Virus record (IMG/VR): IMGVR_UViG_3300045988_163836
DNA length: 60,226 nt
Direction: 5' to 3' (one strand)
Source of the DNA: a virus
Of the stretch, positions 12,657-60,226 are shown piece after piece. Made by a program: the position numbers and the translations under genes. The stretch's first letter is position 1. Every line of letters starts with the position of its first letter. The notes beneath the pieces are model-generated. The model was not told the origin of the DNA and ran no database searches. It saw nothing but the letters and a program-made list of their open reading frames with translations.

Positions 12657-13436
12657 ATGTTCAAGGACTATCTGATTAGAGGCGATTGTCATGGTGATTT
12701 CACATGGCTTAATGCAAGAATGTTTAGAATTTTAAATCCAAAAGACTACGCAATTATTATCCTTGGAGACTGCGGTTTTAATACTGGTAGTGCATTCAGA
12801 GATAATATGAAGAAAGAATATGCAAGCCAGTTTGGATATTTTATTTATTGCGTGCATGGCAATCATGAAGTACGTCCTGAAAACGTTGAAGGTATGGAGC
12901 GTGTTTGGGATAGCAATGTTCAGGCTAATGTATGGTATGAGCCGACTCACCCTCTGATTAGATATTTTGATAATTACGGGATTTATTATCTTAAAACCGA
13001 AGATAGAGAATATCGTACATTAGTTATTGGTGGTGCTTATTCTGTTGATAAATATTATCGTCTTAAAAACAATTTGCTTTGGTGGGAAGATGAACAATTA
13101 AATAATAAAGAAAAAGTTGATGCTGAAATGCTTATTCGACAAACTAATAAGCATTTTGATCTTGTACTATCACACACCTGCCCTTATTCTCTTAGGCCAG
13201 TTGATAAATTCCTTTCAATAGTAGATCAATCTACCGTAGATACTTCTATGGAAGAATGGCTTGAAGAAATTAAGAATATGATTACATATGATGTATGGCT
13301 CTTTGGTCATTATCATTGTGATAGATTTATTAATAAGCATAATATTATCTTTTTTAATTGTATCGACCCTTTGGAAGATATTTTCCTCTGGCATGATAAA
13401 ATGGATGATGCTGTAAATAATATTGACCGCTTTTGA
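12657..13436 (+). CDS. calcineurin-like metallophosphoesterase
   Basis: Motifs RGDCHGD, ILGDCGFN and VHGNHE. Confidence 0.6.
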   Translation: MFKDYLIRGDCHGDFTWLNARMFRILNPKDYAIIILGDCGFNTGSAFRDNMKKEYASQFGYFIYCVHGNHEVRPENVEGMERVWDSNVQANVWYEPTHPLIRYFDNYGIYYLKTEDREYRTLVIGGAYSVDKYYRLKNNLLWWEDEQLNNKEKVDAEMLIRQTNKHFDLVLSHTCPYSLRPVDKFLSIVDQSTVDTSMEEWLEEIKNMITYDVWLFGHYHCDRFINKHNIIFFNCIDPLEDIFLWHDKMDDAVNNIDRF

Positions 13437-13529
13437 GTGGTCAATTCTTTTTAGCTATTAAATTTGACTTTTCATATGAAATATAGTATTATTTACTAGT
13501 TATTTATTTTATATTGAAGGAGAATTAAT

Positions 13530-14118
13530 ATGCGAAAATTCTTAAATGTCATTCTTGTAATCGCTATGGTTGCTTTAATGATGATGCCAGTAAATGCTTT
13601 TAACATAAAAAGTTATAGTGCTGATGGCGGAAGCAGGTCAGAAATCGAATACGGTCCTACAGAATATTGTAATTGCGGAATCGACCATACTAATAAACCC
13701 TTTGAATGGTGGACTGATATTATATCTACTGATAGTCCTCAATGGGATTTAATTCATAATTATTTAACCATTTAGGAGAACGGCACATTAGCTACTGATG
13801 ATGGCTATACTGCTTGTGCTCTTGGAAGGTATTTCGGTAAGATTGGTTCAAAATGGATTTTTATTTGTGAAGATGGTTCAGAGATTAAGGTCGTTAAAGC
13901 TGATGAAAAGCAAGACCGCCATACAAAAAACTGGGATTTAATTCACGGTATTATTTGTGATGAATTAATTGAGCTTGTTGTAGATAGTAAGATTAGTCAA
14001 ACTTGCCCAACTGGCAATTTCAAAGACCTTGAAGGTTTTGAAGGTAATATAATTGGGTGGAAAGAAGTTCTTAATAATGAATTACCCGATTTGTTAAAGG
14101 GAACAATTTATAAATAAA
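13530..14118 (+). CDS. secreted hypothetical protein (one TAG read-through)
   Basis: Signal-peptide-like N-terminus. ORF continues through TAG at 13773 to TAA 14116, with an internal WDLIH duplication. Confidence 0.45.
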
Positions 14119-24078: not shown

Positions 24079-24226
24079 GGGGTCGTGGCCAAGCGGTAAG
24101 GCCGGCAACTTATCCAAGATTAGTTTAAATGGTAAAATAGTCTATGCGCAAGAAAGATGTGAGTTCAAACCTAACATTTTGGGCCAAATTGCCAAATCGT
24201 TGGTTCGAATCCAACCGGCCCCACCA
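24079..24226 (+). tRNA. tRNA (Gln-like D-arm) with about 78-nt ORF-less intervening sequence in the anticodon loop
   Basis: Acceptor ggggtcg/cggcccc, D gcc-aagcggtaa-ggc, anticodon stem ggcaa...ttgcc, T gttgg-ttcgaat-ccaac, a-cca. Insert helix ccaagat/attttgg is adjacent to the anticodon stem. Anticodon is ambiguous (UAU, UCA or CCA depending on splice position). Confidence 0.55.
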
Positions 24227-26745: not shown

Positions 26746-27302
26746 GCGGGATTAGCTCAGCTGGTTAGAGCGTTTGGTTTACTCGGCAAACTCTTTTAAT
26801 TTCTATTTTATGACACGAAATTCTAAAGAAGTCGGTAATTTAGCAGAATTACAATGTATTACTGGTCTTTATGAACTGGGATGTGATATTTCATTTCCTT
26901 TTGGAAATAGTCAAAAGTATGATTTAATTATGGATTATAAAGGTAAACTTTATAAAGTTCAAGTTAAACATGCTAAAGATGAATATACATTAGGAGAAAT
27001 TACACATTTTTCTTTTGCTACGAGATGGCAAAGTCATAATACGACTGGTTATAAAAAAACTCCATACACAAAAAATGATATTGATTTTTTCGCTACTTAT
27101 CACCAAGGAAAAGTTTATTTAATTCCTGTTGAAGAATGTAGCGGAGCTACTAAATCTATTCGTTATACCCCCCCTAAAAATGGACAACGAATTGGTATTA
27201 ATTTTGCTCAAGATTATTTGGCGGAGGAGGTGTTGAAGAAATTGTAAGAGCATTGCTAAGTAATCCAAGAGGTCATTGGTTCGAATCCAATATCCTGCAC
27301 CA
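26746..27302 (+). tRNA. tRNA-Val (UAC), anticodon loop interrupted by a 482-nt ORF-containing intervening sequence
   Basis: 5' exon gcgggat ta gctc-agctggtta-gagc g tttgg tttac (Val-like GAUUAGCUCAGCUGG). 3' exon from 27265: ccaag aggtc attgg-ttcgaat-ccaat atcctgc a cca. Junctions form an extended helix ttact/agtaa + ggcaa/ttgct. Confidence 0.7.
26810..27247 (+). CDS. intron-encoded Hjc/PD-(D/E)xK-like nuclease (paralog A)
   Basis: MTRNSKEVGNLAELQC...YDLIMDYKGKLYKVQVK matches Hjc-like ERExx...D-x-x-A...(E/Q)VK. Fills the tRNA-Val intervening sequence with about 27 nt 5' and about 17 nt 3' non-coding. Paralogs at 56076 and 57052. Confidence 0.65.
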   Translation: MTRNSKEVGNLAELQCITGLYELGCDISFPFGNSQKYDLIMDYKGKLYKVQVKHAKDEYTLGEITHFSFATRWQSHNTTGYKKTPYTKNDIDFFATYHQGKVYLIPVEECSGATKSIRYTPPKNGQRIGINFAQDYLAEEVLKKL

Positions 27303-54635: not shown

Positions 54636-54708
54636 GCCGGCATAGCACAGTTGGTAGTGCAATTGATTTGTAATCAATAGGTCGGGGGTTCGAATCCGTC
54701 TGCCGGCT
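54636..54708 (+). tRNA. tRNA-Thr (UGU), no encoded CCA
   Basis: gccggca ta gcac-agttggta-gtgc a attga-tttgtaa-tcaat aggtc ggggg-ttcgaat-ccgtc tgccggc t. Confidence 0.7.
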
Positions 54709-54787
54709 CGCTATCATGTGAAAGCCTTCTCGTGGCGATAGTGTTTTAACTAATTTCACAATTATTTATTAAAGGAGTCATTTAGAT

Positions 54788-55423
54788 ATGGCATACATTT
54801 ATTAGATAATAAATAATATTAATGGAAAAATTTATGTTGGTAAAACAGTAAAAAATAATATTTAGGAACGTTGGAAAGAACATCTTAAAGATTATAAAAA
54901 ACCTAGATGTGAAAAACGTCCTTTATATGACGCAATGAATAAATATGGTTCAGAAAATTTTTCTATTAAAGAGTTAGAGGAATGTCCATTAGAAGAACTT
55001 AATGATAAAGAAGTTTATTGGATTGAAAAATTAGGTTCTTTTAAATATGGATATAACGCTACAATTGGCGGAGATGGCAAACAATATATTGACTATGATT
55101 TAGTATGCGAAACATATAAGAATTTACAATGTATTGTAGATACTGCTAAACAATTAAATATTAGTGAAGATTCAGTTTCTAAAATTTTAAAATTATATAA
55201 AATTGATATTATTCCTAATGCTAAAATAGTTCAAAATAAGTATGGGAAAATAATTAATATGTATGATTTAAATGATAATTATTTAAGGACTTTTCCATCA
55301 ACAACTGAAGCAGCTAAATTTATGGTAGAAAATAAATTAACTAATTGTAAAATGACTACTATAAAACAACATATTTCTGAAGTATGCAAATGTAAACGAA
55401 ATACAGCTGCTAAGTTTAAATGA
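54788..55423 (+). CDS. GIY-YIG homing endonuclease 2 (in-frame TAG)
   Basis: MAYIY-TAG-IINNINGKIYVGKT; paralog of the 29289 gene. A long hairpin lies downstream around 55463-55545. Confidence 0.7.
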
Positions 55424-55629
55424 AAATATGCTTAATTATTATACCATTAGCCAAGATTGGATAGTTAATAAAACCGTTTCTAGTTAATAGATTCTAGATG
55501 GCCGGGACTCAAAACTGCTGGCAATTCTAATCTTGGCTATTTTCTTTTATTTGAAAAAATTAAAAAAATAGTATATAATATATATACAAAATAAAGAAAA
55601 AAATAAATGAGAAAAAGGTGTTAAAAGTT

Positions 55630-56013: not shown

Positions 56014-56569
56014 CCGGGTGTAGTTCAGTTTGGTAGAACGCTTGATTTGGGAAAAGAGATTTTTGTCTAAAAAATATGTTAGATATTACTCAACAGAAAG
56101 GAACTGTAACAGAGTTAAGATGTATTCTTGATTTAACTAATCTTGGATATAGATGTTTAAAATCTGTTGATGAAAGTTCTAAATATGATGTAGTAGCTGA
56201 TATGGGGATGGGTAAATTTATCCGTATTCAATGTAAAACATCTTCTTGGGTTACTGATACAAAAGAACCTAATGTAGCTTTTGCAATTGCTACAAGTTGT
56301 ATTACCACTAATACAAAATCTACTACTCGTCATAAGTATTCAAAAGATGATATTGATTATTTTTATACTTGGTTTGAAGGCCAAGGATATTTAGTTTCCA
56401 TTGAAGAAGCTACTGGTGCAACTTTTAGATGGCGGTATGAATATCCTTCATCTGGTCAAAAACAGGGTATTCATATCGCTAATGATTACAAAATTGAGGA
56501 GGTCTTAAAGACAATCTAAGATTTTCCTGGATCAAGAGGCCGTGAGTTCAAGTCTCGCCACTCGGACCA
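56014..56569 (+). tRNA. tRNA-Pro (UGG) interrupted by about 480-nt ORF-containing intervening sequence
   Basis: 5' exon ccgggtg ta gttc-agtttggtag-aac g cttga tttggg. 3' exon from 56532: tcaag aggcc gtgag-ttcaagt-ctcgc cactcgg a cca. Junction helix tttgggaaaa/ttttcctgga plus ttgtct/agacaa. Confidence 0.7.
56076..56519 (+). CDS. intron-encoded Hjc/PD-(D/E)xK-like nuclease (paralog B)
   Basis: TELRCILDLTNLGYRCLKSV...YDVVADMGMGKFIRIQCK; fills the tRNA-Pro intervening sequence. Confidence 0.65.
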   Translation: MLDITQQKGTVTELRCILDLTNLGYRCLKSVDESSKYDVVADMGMGKFIRIQCKTSSWVTDTKEPNVAFAIATSCITTNTKSTTRHKYSKDDIDYFYTWFEGQGYLVSIEEATGATFRWRYEYPSSGQKQGIHIANDYKIEEVLKTI

Positions 56570-56997: not shown

Positions 56998-57525
56998 AGG
57001 TCAGTACAGTGTAATTGGTATCACCCCTGACTGGTTTGAAGGAGGTTCATTTTGTAGTCAAAAAGTAACAAAGATAAAGGACGTTTTGGATTAGCTATGG
57101 CTATTGCCTATTTCACTGACAAAGGCTATACAGTCTCAACTCCTTTAAATGATACTCAGTGGTATGATTTAATTATAGAACGAAATGGTAAATTTTAGAC
57201 AGTTCAATGTAAATGTACTGGAAGTTAGGATAATGTTATAATGTTAAGATCTTGCGGTGGTACTAAAGGAACTGTTTATGATAATGTTTTAAATCATTCT
57301 GAGCTTGATTTATTATTTTGTATAGATGTTCAAGGTAATATGTATGTAATTCCATTAAAAGAAATTTTAAAATCAGGAAATACAAAATAGATTACTTTAC
57401 GAACAGCTCCAACAAGCAATAATCAAGGCTTTTAGACTTATAAATTTCGAGTTCGATTCTCGTTTCAAACACCATAAATCAGGTGCTTAATGCGGTTGTT
57501 GGTTCAAGTCCAACCTGGCCTACCA
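56998..57525 (+). tRNA. tRNA-Tyr (GUA, type II) interrupted by about 440-nt ORF-containing intervening sequence
   Basis: 5' exon aggtcag ta c agtg-taattggta-tcac c cctga ctg (to 57033). 3' exon from 57475: taaa tcagg + arm tgcttaatgcggtt + gttgg-ttcaagt-ccaac ctggcct a cca. The spliced loop CUGUAAA matches the Tyr consensus. Confidence 0.6.
57052..57477 (+). CDS. intron-encoded Hjc/PD-(D/E)xK-like nuclease (paralog C, TTG start, 6 TAG)
   Basis: KGRFGLAMAIAYFTDKGYTV...YDLIIERNGKF-TAG-TVQCK; SD aaggagg; the TAA stop overlaps the first nt of the 3' exon. Confidence 0.55.
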
Positions 57526-57584: not shown

Positions 57585-58925
57585 ACTTTAAAAATTAAAT
57601 AATAATTTAATTACGGTTATAGTACAACTCAGTGCAGACTTAACACCATAAGGCTGAGAAATCGATCCACTCTGGCGGAGATTGTAGAATGGAATATTCA
57701 AAGGATACTTTGAAATTATTTCTAAATCTTTTGTAGTGATACATTAGATTCACGCATCGAAGGATGCGGCTACGGGGAGATTGTGCTGGGATAATCGCAT
57801 TTAAGGTCCTGTTCTTCTCGCTTCCATAATAGACAGCATTGTTAACAGCAATGCCGAATCCTTGTTAGGGTAAGGCTGGTAACCTTGCCAAACCAAGGAA
57901 ATACCAATAAGGAAGTTGGCAATTGATGTGGCGTAATCTACTATAAGAGAAGGTCAAGGGTCAAGTAGCCGAAATTTGCCAAGACAGTATGATATTAATT
58001 TAGTAAAAATTATTGGTAATACTATTCTGAATGGTCGGTGAAAGATAGAGGTAGTCAGTCCTCTGTGAGATTTGGCTTAGGCCGGGGCAAGAAGTTATGA
58101 AGTCGCTATTCATAGCTCAGACTTGTTTCCTTACTTACCTAATAAAATGAAGATTATTAACCAGTAGGGCGAAGGTCCGTAGTATAATTGTAATTAAGTT
58201 ATTATTTAATAACTTACGATTTCCTTTCCTGTTAAAAATAAATCATTAAATGATTTATTTGAAATGAATTATGTAGATGCTAATATAGGCGGTGGCTTGC
58301 ACATTAACCTCATTGGGTAGCCAATCCCACATCGTTAGAGGCCTCTGCGGAACCTGCTCCTATGGCTGTAGGGTTCTTACATAATCTAATCAAATAAGGT
58401 TGACTCGCCTGTTGTCCGGTGAAATGATATATCTGGAAACCGTACTGATACGTATCAGATATTTGATTAGCGTCCTAATCTTGGTTAATTAGGTAGTGGA
58501 ACAATACGCTAAACCAGCCAGCTCTCCACTATAAATAAGCTGAATAGGGATGTTTGTGGCTCACATACCAAAAAGCCATTACCAAGTGCGGAAATAAGAT
58601 CCTTGGTAGTCTCTCATATAAAGGCGTGGAAAATGAGACGTAATGGACTACGAAAAAGACATATAATAGGTAGAGTTATTATTTATTGTGTTAGATTATA
58701 GAATGAAAATCCTATTATTAAAAACTGTATATTCTACTTCCTATTGGTAGGTATTATAAGTTTAATGGTAGGTCAAAAATTTAATATATTCCAATAGCTA
58801 ATGAATGAGGTAGGCTGAAGTACTTAGTGGCGTGGGCAGGCATAGAGGCGACCTATAAATGGTTAGTGGCTATGGTGTAGTTTATTCCTATTGGATATAT
58901 TAATTTTTGTAAATATATTCTACTG
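57585..58925 (+). ncRNA. large ORF-free structured RNA candidate (GOLLD/ROOL-like by size and context)
   Basis: About 1.3 kb with no ORF of 60 aa or more on either strand, locally GC-enriched and rich in complementary stretches. Preceded by promoter motif 57545-57580 and flanked by tRNAs. Confidence 0.45.
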
Positions 58926-59087
58926 AATAATTTGATTTTAAAAAAATTATTTAGTATAATATATTTACAAGATAAAGAGAAGTTAGGATAATTTCTCTAA
59001 GACAGTTTCAGTAAATTTTTATTAAAGATAATCATATGTTTTTTGGTTCATAAGAAGATACTTTATTAAACTGTCTTGTATATATAT

Positions 59088-59162
59088 TCCGGCTTTGGGT
59101 AACGGTTAGCTCAGCTGACTCTAAATCAGCAAGTCTCAGTTCGACTCTGAGAGCCGGTGCCA
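59088..59162 (+). tRNA. amber suppressor tRNA (anticodon CUA), glutamine-type identity
   Basis: tccggct tt gggt-aacggtta-gctc a gctga-ctctaaa-tcagc aagt ctcag-ttcgact-ctgag agccggt g cca. Loop CUCUAAA; weak 1-72 pair (U-U) and G73, as in tRNA-Gln. Confidence 0.8.
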
Positions 59163-59261
59163 GGCGTAAGGCTCACGCAGCAAATTTACTTTTGAAAGTT
59201 CACCTAAAATGAATTGCTATTTTTCAAAATTGAGTCTTGATTTAATTAATATAGTTTATTT

Positions 59262-60085
59262 GCCGGTGTGGTGGAATGGTAGACACAAGGGACTTTTGAC
59301 TTAGCAAACGTTAAAATGGAGTGCCTAAGAGGAAACTCTTAGAGCAGAAGTTGGCTAAAACGGTGAATGGCTAAGAGAACGCCGTGCTAAGTTTTGGAAC
59401 ACATTCTAAAAAATTGGACGACACTCATTAAAATACCTTTTTTAATTTTTAAGTAATAATGAAAGAGAGGTAATATAAATGAGAACTGATATTTTAGAAC
59501 GCAAAGAAGAAATTGAGCAATGGATTACTGAAGGTAAAACTAAAGCTCAAATGGCAAGAGAATTGGGTTGTAATCCTAAAACAATTAATCCAGTATTAAA
59601 AAAGCTTGGTCTTGAATATGCTGGAAATCAAGGTTGTAAAGGATTGTCAAAACCCAATGGACATGAATTATCTTTGTTAGAATACTTAGAAAAAAGTATT
59701 GATATACAGAGTAATAAAGTAAGAAAAAAACTTCTTGATGAAGGTTATAAAGAGTACAAATGTGAATGTTGTGGATTAACCGAATGGTTAGGAGAACCAA
59801 TTCCTTTAGAACTTCATCATAAAGATGGAAATCATTTTAATAATGAATTAGATAATTTCCAATTATTATGCCCAAATTGTCATGCAAAAACATCTTCTTA
59901 TCGTGGAAAAAATTGTTCCAAATAAATGTGTAGAGAGTATATACCAACTATCTAAGTGCAAGTCGTGCATATGATAAAGACGTATTCCAGACTACAACAC
60001 AAAAATGTGGCTATGGTGACATAGAGTAGTAAGAAAATCCCTCGGTGGCAACACCATGCGGGTTCGAGTCCCGCCACCGGCACCA
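59262..60085 (+). tRNA. tRNA-Leu (UAA, type II) with about 738-nt group-I-like intron carrying an HNH ORF
   Basis: 5' exon gccggtg tg gtg-gaatggtaga-cac a aggga ctt (to 59295). 3' exon from 60034: aaaa tccct + arm cggtggcaacaccat + gcggg-ttcgagt-cccgc caccggc a cca. Insertion lies between 34 and 35, the classic tRNA-Leu(UAA) intron site; about 290 nt of non-coding intron sequence flanks the ORF. Confidence 0.65.
59479..59925 (+). CDS. HNH homing endonuclease (intron-encoded)
   Basis: CxxC...ELHHKDGNHFNNELDNFQLLCPNCH; intact, with no TAG. Confidence 0.75.
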   Translation: MRTDILERKEEIEQWITEGKTKAQMARELGCNPKTINPVLKKLGLEYAGNQGCKGLSKPNGHELSLLEYLEKSIDIQSNKVRKKLLDEGYKEYKCECCGLTEWLGEPIPLELHHKDGNHFNNELDNFQLLCPNCHAKTSSYRGKNCSK

Positions 60086-60226
60086 TTAAACAATAGTAGC
60101 TAACGGCAGTTGAACAGACGGGTCGGGGCTAACATAGAAAGGTTAGCAGGTAGTACGGCGGTAGGTAACAAATCCGCAAGTCGAAATGAGTCGGGAAATC
60201 CGAATGATACGGCTTAGATGTTTTCC

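Follow-up and report, generated by a model that had tools for sequence, protein, structure and literature searches.

We analysed a stretch of viral DNA of 60,226 nucleotides (nt), IMG/VR record IMGVR_UViG_3300045988_163836, which we call the window, and within it a gene for tRNA-Leu(UAA) that is split by a 738-nt insertion carrying an open reading frame (ORF) for an HNH protein. The window has a GC content of 31% and contains tRNA arrays, and among its ORFs are several with matches to known phage protein families. The related contigs used for comparison are IMG/VR viral genomes and are given L numbers where they must be told apart. The gene is laid out as follows.

59262..59295, + strand: 5′ exon of tRNA-Leu(UAA), nt 1–34, whose last base is U34 (ARAGORN on the joined exons; same sequence as in the intron-less gene of L008)
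59296..60033, + strand: probable group I intron, 738 nt, of IC3-like architecture (exact 738-nt gap in L008; covariation in the family; relatives match Rfam Intron_gpI)
59479..59925, + strand: ORF of 148 amino acids (aa) for a probable HNH homing endonuclease, with an N-terminal helix-turn-helix and a C-terminal HNH domain, in the P6 loop of the intron (PHROG match; identity to T5 HegA)
60034..60085, + strand: 3′ exon of tRNA-Leu(UAA), from A35 to the encoded CCA, with discriminator A73 (ARAGORN on the joined exons; L008)

Joining the two exons (59262-59295 and 60034-60085) gives 86 nt that ARAGORN recognises as a type II tRNA-Leu(taa), with A73, an encoded CCA, the D stem gtg and cac, the T stem gcggg and cccgc, and a long variable arm; the stems and the arm are as reconstructed in the original prediction, an earlier reading made from the letters of this DNA. 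The 5′ splice site is preceded by U59295 and the 3′ splice site by G60033. Gene finders that expect an uninterrupted gene miss this tRNA: default ARAGORN and the Rfam tRNA model give no call at the locus. The window sequence alone would permit other 7-nt anticodon loops, with the anticodons UUA (stop-reading), UUU, or GAA.

The position of the splice junction is fixed by an empty-site allele. Scanning the viral contigs with the 5′ exon, we found an identical tRNA-Leu without the intron in L008 (IMGVR_UViG_3300029858_000001, a 157-kb contig), where the gene reads GGGACTT/AAAATCCCT (here and below, a slash within an exon sequence marks the splice junction). L008 and the window are collinear at 98% identity over 58241-59295 and 60034-60226, with exactly 738 nt skipped, and the tRNA-Leu exons are 100% conserved between the intron-plus and intron-minus alleles. 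Because of this allele, the junction is CUU/AAAA, the intron is 59296-60033, and the insertion lies between U34 and A35, with U at position −1 and G60033 as the last intron base. Joins that would give the anticodons UUA, UUU, GAA, or UGA are ruled out by the same allele. The anticodon UAA, the intron of about 738 nt, and an intact ORF at 59479-59925, flanked by 183 nt on its 5′ side and 108 nt on its 3′ side, had all been read correctly in the original prediction. The same interrupted gene, with intron and ORF, is present at 98% identity in L006 and L014, and several ENA and Logan samples contain the identical HNH protein, on at least 22 metagenomic contigs that reach 191 kb in length, so an artefact of a single assembly is excluded.

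The 148-aa ORF has a Shine-Dalgarno sequence, GAGAGG, upstream of its AUG. Its protein contains the HNH motifs CECCG...HHKDGN...N...CPNCH with the zinc-binding cysteines, it matches PHROG HNH endonuclease families with E = 1.6e-27, and it is 51% identical over its full length to HegA (F-TflIV) of phage T5 (E = 9e-51). A sequence search of the PDB with this protein gave no informative match.

Fold of the intron and covariation in its family

The structure below was drawn from the window's own sequence, the assignment of its elements was guided by ORF-less relatives, and all coordinates were checked against the letters. In brackets we give the observations that bear on each element, among them the minimum-free-energy (MFE) fold and the 26-member family alignment that are described after the list.

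59292..59322, + strand: P1, exon ACUU and the first intron base U (59292-59296) with the internal guide GGAGU (59318-59322); wobble U59295.G59319 at the 5′ splice site (U.G in 26 of 26 members)
59325..59342, + strand: P2 hairpin CUAAGAG-GAAA-CUCUUAG with a GNRA tetraloop, 59325-59331 with 59336-59342 (compensatory changes at 7 of 7 pairs; MFE fold)
59349..59354, + strand: 5′ strand of P3, AGUUGG, partner 59944-59949 (compensatory changes at 4 of 6 pairs, one of which is U:A in 13 members and C:G in 11)
59360..59385, + strand: P4, ACGGUG with CGCCGU, 59360-59365 with 59380-59385, around a reduced 14-nt P5 region at 59366-59379 (pairs checked)
59393..59401, + strand: 5′ strand of P6, UUUGGAACA, partner 59914-59922 (9 perfect pairs; the outer 5 all compensatory in the family)
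59914..59922, + strand: 3′ strand of P6, UGUUCCAAA, doubling as the final three sense codons of the ORF, C S K (a short hairpin here in ORF-less relatives)
59933..59939, + strand: 5′ strand of P7, GAGAGUA, with A59934 bulged and G59935:C59987 as the predicted guanosine-binding site (G:C, G:C, and A:U invariant)
59944..59949, + strand: 3′ strand of P3, CCAACU, which forms the P3/P7 pseudoknot (family covariation)
59951..59974, + strand: P8 hairpin GUGCA-AGUCG-UGCAU, 59956-59960 with 59966-59970, and basal pairs 59951-59952 with 59973-59974 (compensatory changes; MFE fold)
59983..59988, + strand: 3′ strand of P7, UAUUCC (family covariation)
59991..60030, + strand: P9 domain, ACUAC with GUAGU (59991-59995 with 60026-60030) and hairpins at 59998-60009 and 60011-60024, the latter with a GUGA tetraloop (compensatory changes in all three helices; MFE fold)
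60033, + strand: omega-G, at the 3′ end of the intron (no other G yields a 7-nt loop that agrees with the empty-site allele; terminal G in 30 of 30 viral members)

All 55 of the 55 pairs in this structure form in the window sequence, and an MFE fold of the ORF-deleted intron independently recovers the anticodon stem, P2, P4, P6, P8, and P9 (z = −4.2). The ORF is built into the fold, in that its final codons UGU UCC AAA encode the 3′ strand of P6 and its stop codon (59923-59925) opens J6/7. The original prediction had said to look for a P1 in which the exon CUU pairs with an internal guide and for a guanosine-binding site in P7, and both were located, at U59295.G59319 and G59935:C59987. An alternative P7 made of ACUAC and GUAGU (59991-59995 with 60026-60030) was rejected; it offers no G:C binding pair, and the ORF-less relatives show that this helix belongs to P9 and that P7 is GAGAGUA with UAUUCC. 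The intron has no P5abc and no P7.1/P7.2, and it therefore appears to have the compact architecture of bacterial tRNA introns; the label IC3-like is taken from this architecture.

Because CUAAAACGGUG...CGCCGUGCUAAG resembled the J3/4-P4...P4′-J4/6 segments of group I cores, we scanned the viral contigs for TAAAACGG-N14-26-CCGTGCTAA. The scan returned 69 viral loci, and at 30 of these 69 a tRNA gene with a CUU/AAAA loop is split at U34/A35 by a homologous intron of 218-896 nt. All 30 introns have U at −1 and a terminal G and leave the anticodon UAA. Many members of the family have no ORF, and the ORF-less ones at this site measure 218-350 nt; one of them, L040 (227 nt), shares its first 21 nt with the window intron and has a 7-bp P6 hairpin where the window has the ORF. 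Two of the 30 introns, those of L077 and L081, sit at CUU/AAAA inside tRNA bodies of 76-77 nt of class I type that have no long variable arm. ARAGORN labels these two tRNAs Leu(taa) from the anticodon alone, so the label does not establish their amino-acid identity.

To the viral copies a motif scan of GTDB genomes added at least 22 loci where the family sits in tRNA-Leu(UAA), including Ruminococcus albus 8, R. flavefaciens FD-1, and metagenome-assembled genomes of Oscillospiraceae and Clostridiales. With the exception of L125, a 317-nt intron in a phage-like tRNA array, these copies are ORF-less, 231-244 nt long, and 68-74% identical to the phage cores. A blastn search of 50,697 GenBank phage records with 59000-60226 matched the HNH domain only and found no ribozyme relative, and a megablast search with 40000-60226 found tRNA fragments only.

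We aligned 26 distinct members of the family with MAFFT, after trimming long P6 loops to 13+13 nt and removing the ORF from the intron of L067. When the P1-P9 structure drawn from the window is laid on this alignment, 96.3% of cells are paired, and changes on both sides that preserve pairing are present in 31 of the 55 pairs (168 cells) and in P2, P3, P6, P7, P8, and P9. The covariation score is 0.366, compared with 0.05-0.07 when the partners are slid by 1-3 columns, and it was reached by 0 of 500 shuffles. At the inner P7 pairs the family has G.U, C:G, or G:C at one and U:A or C:G at the other, and at the base of P8 some members have UC with GA and others CC with GG. The splice-site U.G and the outer P7 pairs, including G59935:C59987 next to the bulged A59934, are invariant in 26 of 26.

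From the boundaries, the fold, and the covariation, we conclude with a probability of roughly 0.88 that this is a phage tRNA-Leu(UAA) gene split at U34/A35 by a group I intron with an HNH homing-endonuclease gene in its P6 loop, in which the intron would be catalytically active, the gene expressed, and the endonuclease directed at a target of the kind proposed below. The central claim of the original prediction, that the tRNA is interrupted at 34/35 by a group I intron with an HNH endonuclease whose flanks are long enough for a core, is thus borne out by fold and covariation. Several observations weigh against it. RF00028 (Intron_gpI) gave no match at the gathering threshold in the window, none at E <= 10 on 59200-60226, and none to either half of the ribozyme with truncated matches allowed. 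In Pfam, the protein scores 18.3 bits for HNH against a cutoff of 21.4, and HTH_38 is also below its cutoff. No convincing P5 helix was found in the 14-nt region, a P10 pairing was looked for and none was convincing, and one P7 pair is G.U in the window where relatives have G:C or C:G. The covariation test itself has limits: the conservation of P4 is uninformative because the search motif fixed P4, the P6 loops were trimmed by hand, and a structure derived from the window has an advantage over slid controls in the percentage of cells paired.

The original prediction had proposed this very Rfam search and had named the lack of a match, together with the lack of a spliced product, as the outcome that would speak for a different class of insert. 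We read the missing match as a limit of the model, because the RF00028 seed contains no bacterial sequence (Williams, 10.1101/2020.01.27.920355) and the window copy has an insertion of about 512 nt in P6. An ORF-less relative of 263 nt, L075, which is 71% identical to the ORF-deleted core of the window, scores 52.4 bits against the threshold of 50. The model is weak on the bacterial subfamily as a whole, because none of the at least 22 copies from bacterial genomes, including Ruminococcus, reaches the threshold, and L040, the ORF-less twin of the window intron, scores only 26.7 bits (E = 5e-5), which is below it. The missing match on the window is a false negative, and the group I assignment stands on family homology and covariation.

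Of the other explanations, the one that survives best is that the ribozyme core is present but does not splice itself, being either a relic kept by endonuclease drive or dependent on a protein helper. The minimal P5, the G.U pair in P7, and the P6 loop of about 512 nt might hinder folding, but all 55 core pairs are intact in the window, the catalytic positions that do not vary in the family are retained, alleles with and without the intron have identical exons, and the end of the ORF is fitted into P6 and does not disrupt it. The reduced P5 is also present in the chromosomal, presumably essential, tRNA-Leu(UAA) genes of Ruminococcus, and we consider loss of self-splicing improbable. Far less probable still is that there is no intron at all and that a free-standing HNH cassette has inserted and inactivated the tRNA gene, as the missing Rfam match on the window and the ORF-only inserts in tRNA-Val, tRNA-Pro, and tRNA-Tyr of the same genome might suggest; the non-coding flanks, about 230 nt in all, form a P1-P9 structure that covaries strongly, and they are homologous to ORF-less introns of 218-350 nt at the same site, one of them above the Rfam threshold. 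The idea that the exons join one base off, to give the anticodon UUA and an ochre-suppressor tRNA that would suit a stop-recoding phage, has in its favor the label 'tRNA-Stop (tta)' from the intron mode of ARAGORN (-i), the signs of TAG recoding in the window, and a tRNA(CUA) next door, but it is hardly credible at all, as it needs a 9-nt anticodon loop, the intron-less L008 allele reads CUUAAAA, only CUU/AAAA satisfies the group I rules of a U at −1 paired with G and an omega-G, and the anticodon is UAA in 30 of 30 viral relatives. For annotation this matters, since a 'tRNA-Stop (tta)' call in an apparently TAG-recoding phage could pass for an ochre suppressor when the gene is an ordinary tRNA-Leu(UAA).

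If the group I intron acts as its fold suggests, splicing would proceed as follows. Exon ACUU and the first intron U would pair with the guide GGAGU to form P1, and U34.G59319 would mark the 5′ splice site. The active site would be built from the P3-P8 and P4-P6 domains together with the P3/P7 pseudoknot, and in it a free guanosine bound at the P7 pair G59935:C59987 would attack after U34. The omega-G, G60033, would then occupy the guanosine site, and the freed 3′ OH of U34 would attack after G60033. This would join U34 to A35 at GGGACUU/AAAAUCCCU (equivalently GGGACUU/AAAAUCCCUCGGUGGC) and give a functional tRNA-Leu(UAA) predicted to read UUA and UUG. Since UUA and UUG make up 41% of Leu codons in the seven ORFs of at least 300 aa in this window, the phage should profit from a working tRNA-Leu(UAA).

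Mobility, endonucleases, and other inserts

Next, we consider whether the intron moves. In L024 and L060 the intron with its ORF is about 96.6% identical to that of the window, and the tRNA-Leu exons around it are only 68-74% identical to the window's, so the intron has been transferred between diverged exon backgrounds. A single exon backbone (GCGGGCGTGGCGGAACTGGCAGACGCCTGGGACTT...) hosts four different versions of the intron, in L063, L067, L074, and L024. Because a near-identical intron sits in diverged exons, the near-identical phage L008 has no intron, and one backbone carries four versions, the comparison indicates that the intron is mobile and moves laterally. The protein with its helix-turn-helix and HNH domains would nick or cut intron-less tRNA-Leu(UAA) alleles, its presumed target, during co-infection, and the intron and its ORF would spread as a unit when the damage was repaired from the intron-bearing copy.

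At least three different endonuclease ORFs are carried by the family: the HNH ORF in P6, a second HNH type, and a LAGLIDADG-like ORF between P7 and P3. The second HNH type is found in the introns of L039 and L046, where it has no ATG start. In L067 (IMGVR_UViG_3300045988_117464, intron 13199-14094), a 201-aa LAGLIDADG-like ORF (...GIAWWYMDDGS...) lies between P7 and P3′ instead of an HNH ORF in P6, which indicates that another kind of endonuclease probably invaded this ribozyme independently. A reading of the HNH ORFs in L026 and L053 as degenerate, and of ORFs in L039, L046, and L074 as absent, was dropped upon retranslation, which gave intact ORFs in L026 and L074 with TAG as Gln and the second HNH type in L039 and L046.

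The chromosomal tRNA-Leu(UAA) introns of Ruminococcus and other Oscillospiraceae belong to the same family as the phage copies and have the same site and the same signatures of internal guide, P2, P3, P7, and P8, but they lack an ORF, and the majority of these tRNA genes stand singly, not in tRNA arrays. It is possible, though we regard it as doubtful, that endonuclease-armed copies move not only between diverged phage tRNA-Leu genes but also between phages and Ruminococcus/Oscillospiraceae hosts that hold ORF-less copies. Were this so, it would supply a missing mechanism for the lateral spread of an intron that is usually treated as vertically inherited and immobile.

Three other tRNA genes of the window are also split in the anticodon loop, those for Val-UAC (26746-27302), Pro-UGG (56014-56569), and Tyr-GUA (57034-57474). 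Their inserts of 440-480 nt are almost all ORF and leave no room for a group I core. The ORFs in the Val and Pro inserts are PF11645 PD-(D/E)XK endonucleases, and the one in Pro matches PDB 2OST (E = 4e-4), which we take to be I-Ssp6803I. L006 has intact tRNA-Pro and tRNA-Tyr genes, that is, empty sites. The tRNA-Pro insert is present in eight more viral contigs (L213-L220) with the conserved ends GGGAAAAGAGAUUU...UAAGAUUUUCCUGGA, and in these inserts there are a covarying stem that closes off the ORF and, separately, a helix of GGAAAA with UUUUCC that has one compensatory change (in L215). The original prediction had placed two mechanistically different types of tRNA intron side by side in this genome; the lack of room for a ribozyme in the Val, Pro, and Tyr inserts and the PD-(D/E)XK proteins in Val and Pro make this plausible, but only half of the claim is demonstrated.

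Another segment of 734 nt (54710-55443), absent from L006, lies at the 3′ end of tRNA-Thr (54636-54709), and the protein of 162 aa that it encodes contains a NUMOD1 domain as well as GIY-YIG-like motifs; the segment looks like another endonuclease cassette beside a tRNA gene. At 24079-24226, where the Rfam tRNA model spans 145 nt and the intron mode of ARAGORN calls a tRNA-Trp(cca) with a 73-nt insert, there is another interrupted or aberrant tRNA.

The window also has signs of what may be TAG-to-Gln recoding. Reading TAG as sense raises long-ORF coverage of 31000-54000 from 9.3 to 22.4 kb, and reading TGA as sense gives no such gain. The HNH ORFs in the introns of L074 and L026 are intact only with readthrough of in-frame TAGs, and one TAG in each aligns with a Gln of the window's protein (GNqSG versus GNQGC in L074 and NYqLLCPNCH versus NFQLLCPNCH in L026). 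The tRNA(CUA) at 59088-59162, labelled 'Pyl' by ARAGORN, has a U1-U72 mismatch and G73, which we take to be Gln-like identity features.

Two structured RNAs lie close by. A RAGATH-33 RNA (60099-60211, 139 bits) begins 14 nt past the CCA end of tRNA-Leu, and RAGATH-33 is also found 3′ of the intron-bearing tRNA-Leu in L063 (1029-1157) and, as BLAST matches show, in L024 and L060, whose exon backbones are different. A full-length ROOL RNA (57604-58197, 323 bits) lies within the tRNA array, with others in L040, L051, L036, and L028; its place in the array is in keeping with the literature, where ROOL has been linked to tRNAs and prophages (PMC5737381).

Comparison with known introns and endonucleases

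Among the closest known counterparts is the tRNA-Leu intron of Nostoc (Anabaena) PCC 7120, of subgroup IC3. We took this gene with its 249-nt intron from the supplementary table of PMC13011429 and added it to the alignment. At homologous columns the Nostoc intron forms 4 of 5 pairs in P1 (including the U.G), 7 of 7 in P2, 5 of 6 in P3, 6 of 6 in P4, 6 of 6 in P7, and 2 of 2 at the base of P8. The two introns are 53% identical over the aligned core columns, many pairs differ in a compensatory way, and P6, P8, and P9, which are of unequal length in the two, did not align. They have in common the host gene, the U34/A35 site, U at −1, omega-G, a compact core, a GAAA-capped P2, and the junction sequences GUGYAGAGA before P7 and CCUAA...GGUAAAGA around P8. 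In insertion site, in the U before the 5′ splice site, and in the G before the 3′ splice site, the match to the cyanobacterial and plastid intron proposed originally is confirmed, and it appears to extend to the architecture. The window intron differs in its P5 region of about 14 nt, in a P9 of two small hairpins, in its phage genome, and in the HNH ORF in P6, for which the 249-nt Nostoc intron is too short.

Cyanobacteria and plastids are the classic setting for group I introns at 34/35 of tRNA-Leu(UAA), and such introns are by now on record from across the bacterial phyla (10.1101/2020.01.27.920355; PMC13011429). The view that this intron is rare outside cyanobacteria and plastids is outdated, as the family is present in the chromosomal tRNA-Leu(UAA) genes of R. 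albus 8 and R. flavefaciens FD-1. The companion view that it is not typical of phages agrees with a 2014 review, according to which, for all the tRNA genes that phages have, no phage intron known at that time lay outside protein-coding genes (PMC3984707), but it is at odds with the 30 IMG/VR loci that carry the family. A preprint on Lak megaphages describes 'enigmatic' tRNA introns of unknown class (10.1101/356790), and in the literature that we searched, whose coverage is incomplete, no phage tRNA gene was described as containing a group I intron.

Homing endonucleases are uncommon in bacterial tRNA introns, being present in 12 of 333, which include an HNH in Bacteroidota tRNA-Leu(UAA) (PMC13011429). 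The intron described here resembles those cases, and I-Ssp6803I in tRNA-fMet, in that a group I intron in the anticodon loop carries a homing endonuclease. They are in cellular genomes, whereas this one is in phage tRNA arrays and carries an HNH of the T5 HegA type. HegA itself shares 51% identity over all 148 aa, the same layout of helix-turn-helix and HNH, and a place among phage tRNA genes, but it has 227 aa, is free-standing between tRNA genes, and lies outside introns. This free-standing position of HegA among the T5 tRNA genes is given by Akulenko et al. 2004, as cited in PMC2330249.

The classic phage introns (T4 td with I-TevI, SPO1 with I-HmuI, and Twort) are alike in being phage-borne, of a self-splicing type, and equipped with an endonuclease ORF looped out from a peripheral helix. 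The T4 td intron also has its ORF in P6. These introns reside in protein-coding genes and are of subgroup IA2 with P7.1/P7.2, whereas the window intron resides in a tRNA gene and does not have those extensions.

The Anabaena tRNA-Leu ribozyme is used for RNA circularisation, and the family described here comprises many natural compact relatives of it (218-260 nt). It also supplies an HNH enzyme predicted to recognise a tRNA gene. With 30 viral-contig loci in tRNA-Leu(UAA), at least three endonuclease ORFs, and apparent lateral movement, it offers a testable counter-example to the picture of an immobile intron. The intron is of a type well known in bacteria and is ordinary in its mechanism, and it is new in its host and in its cargo.

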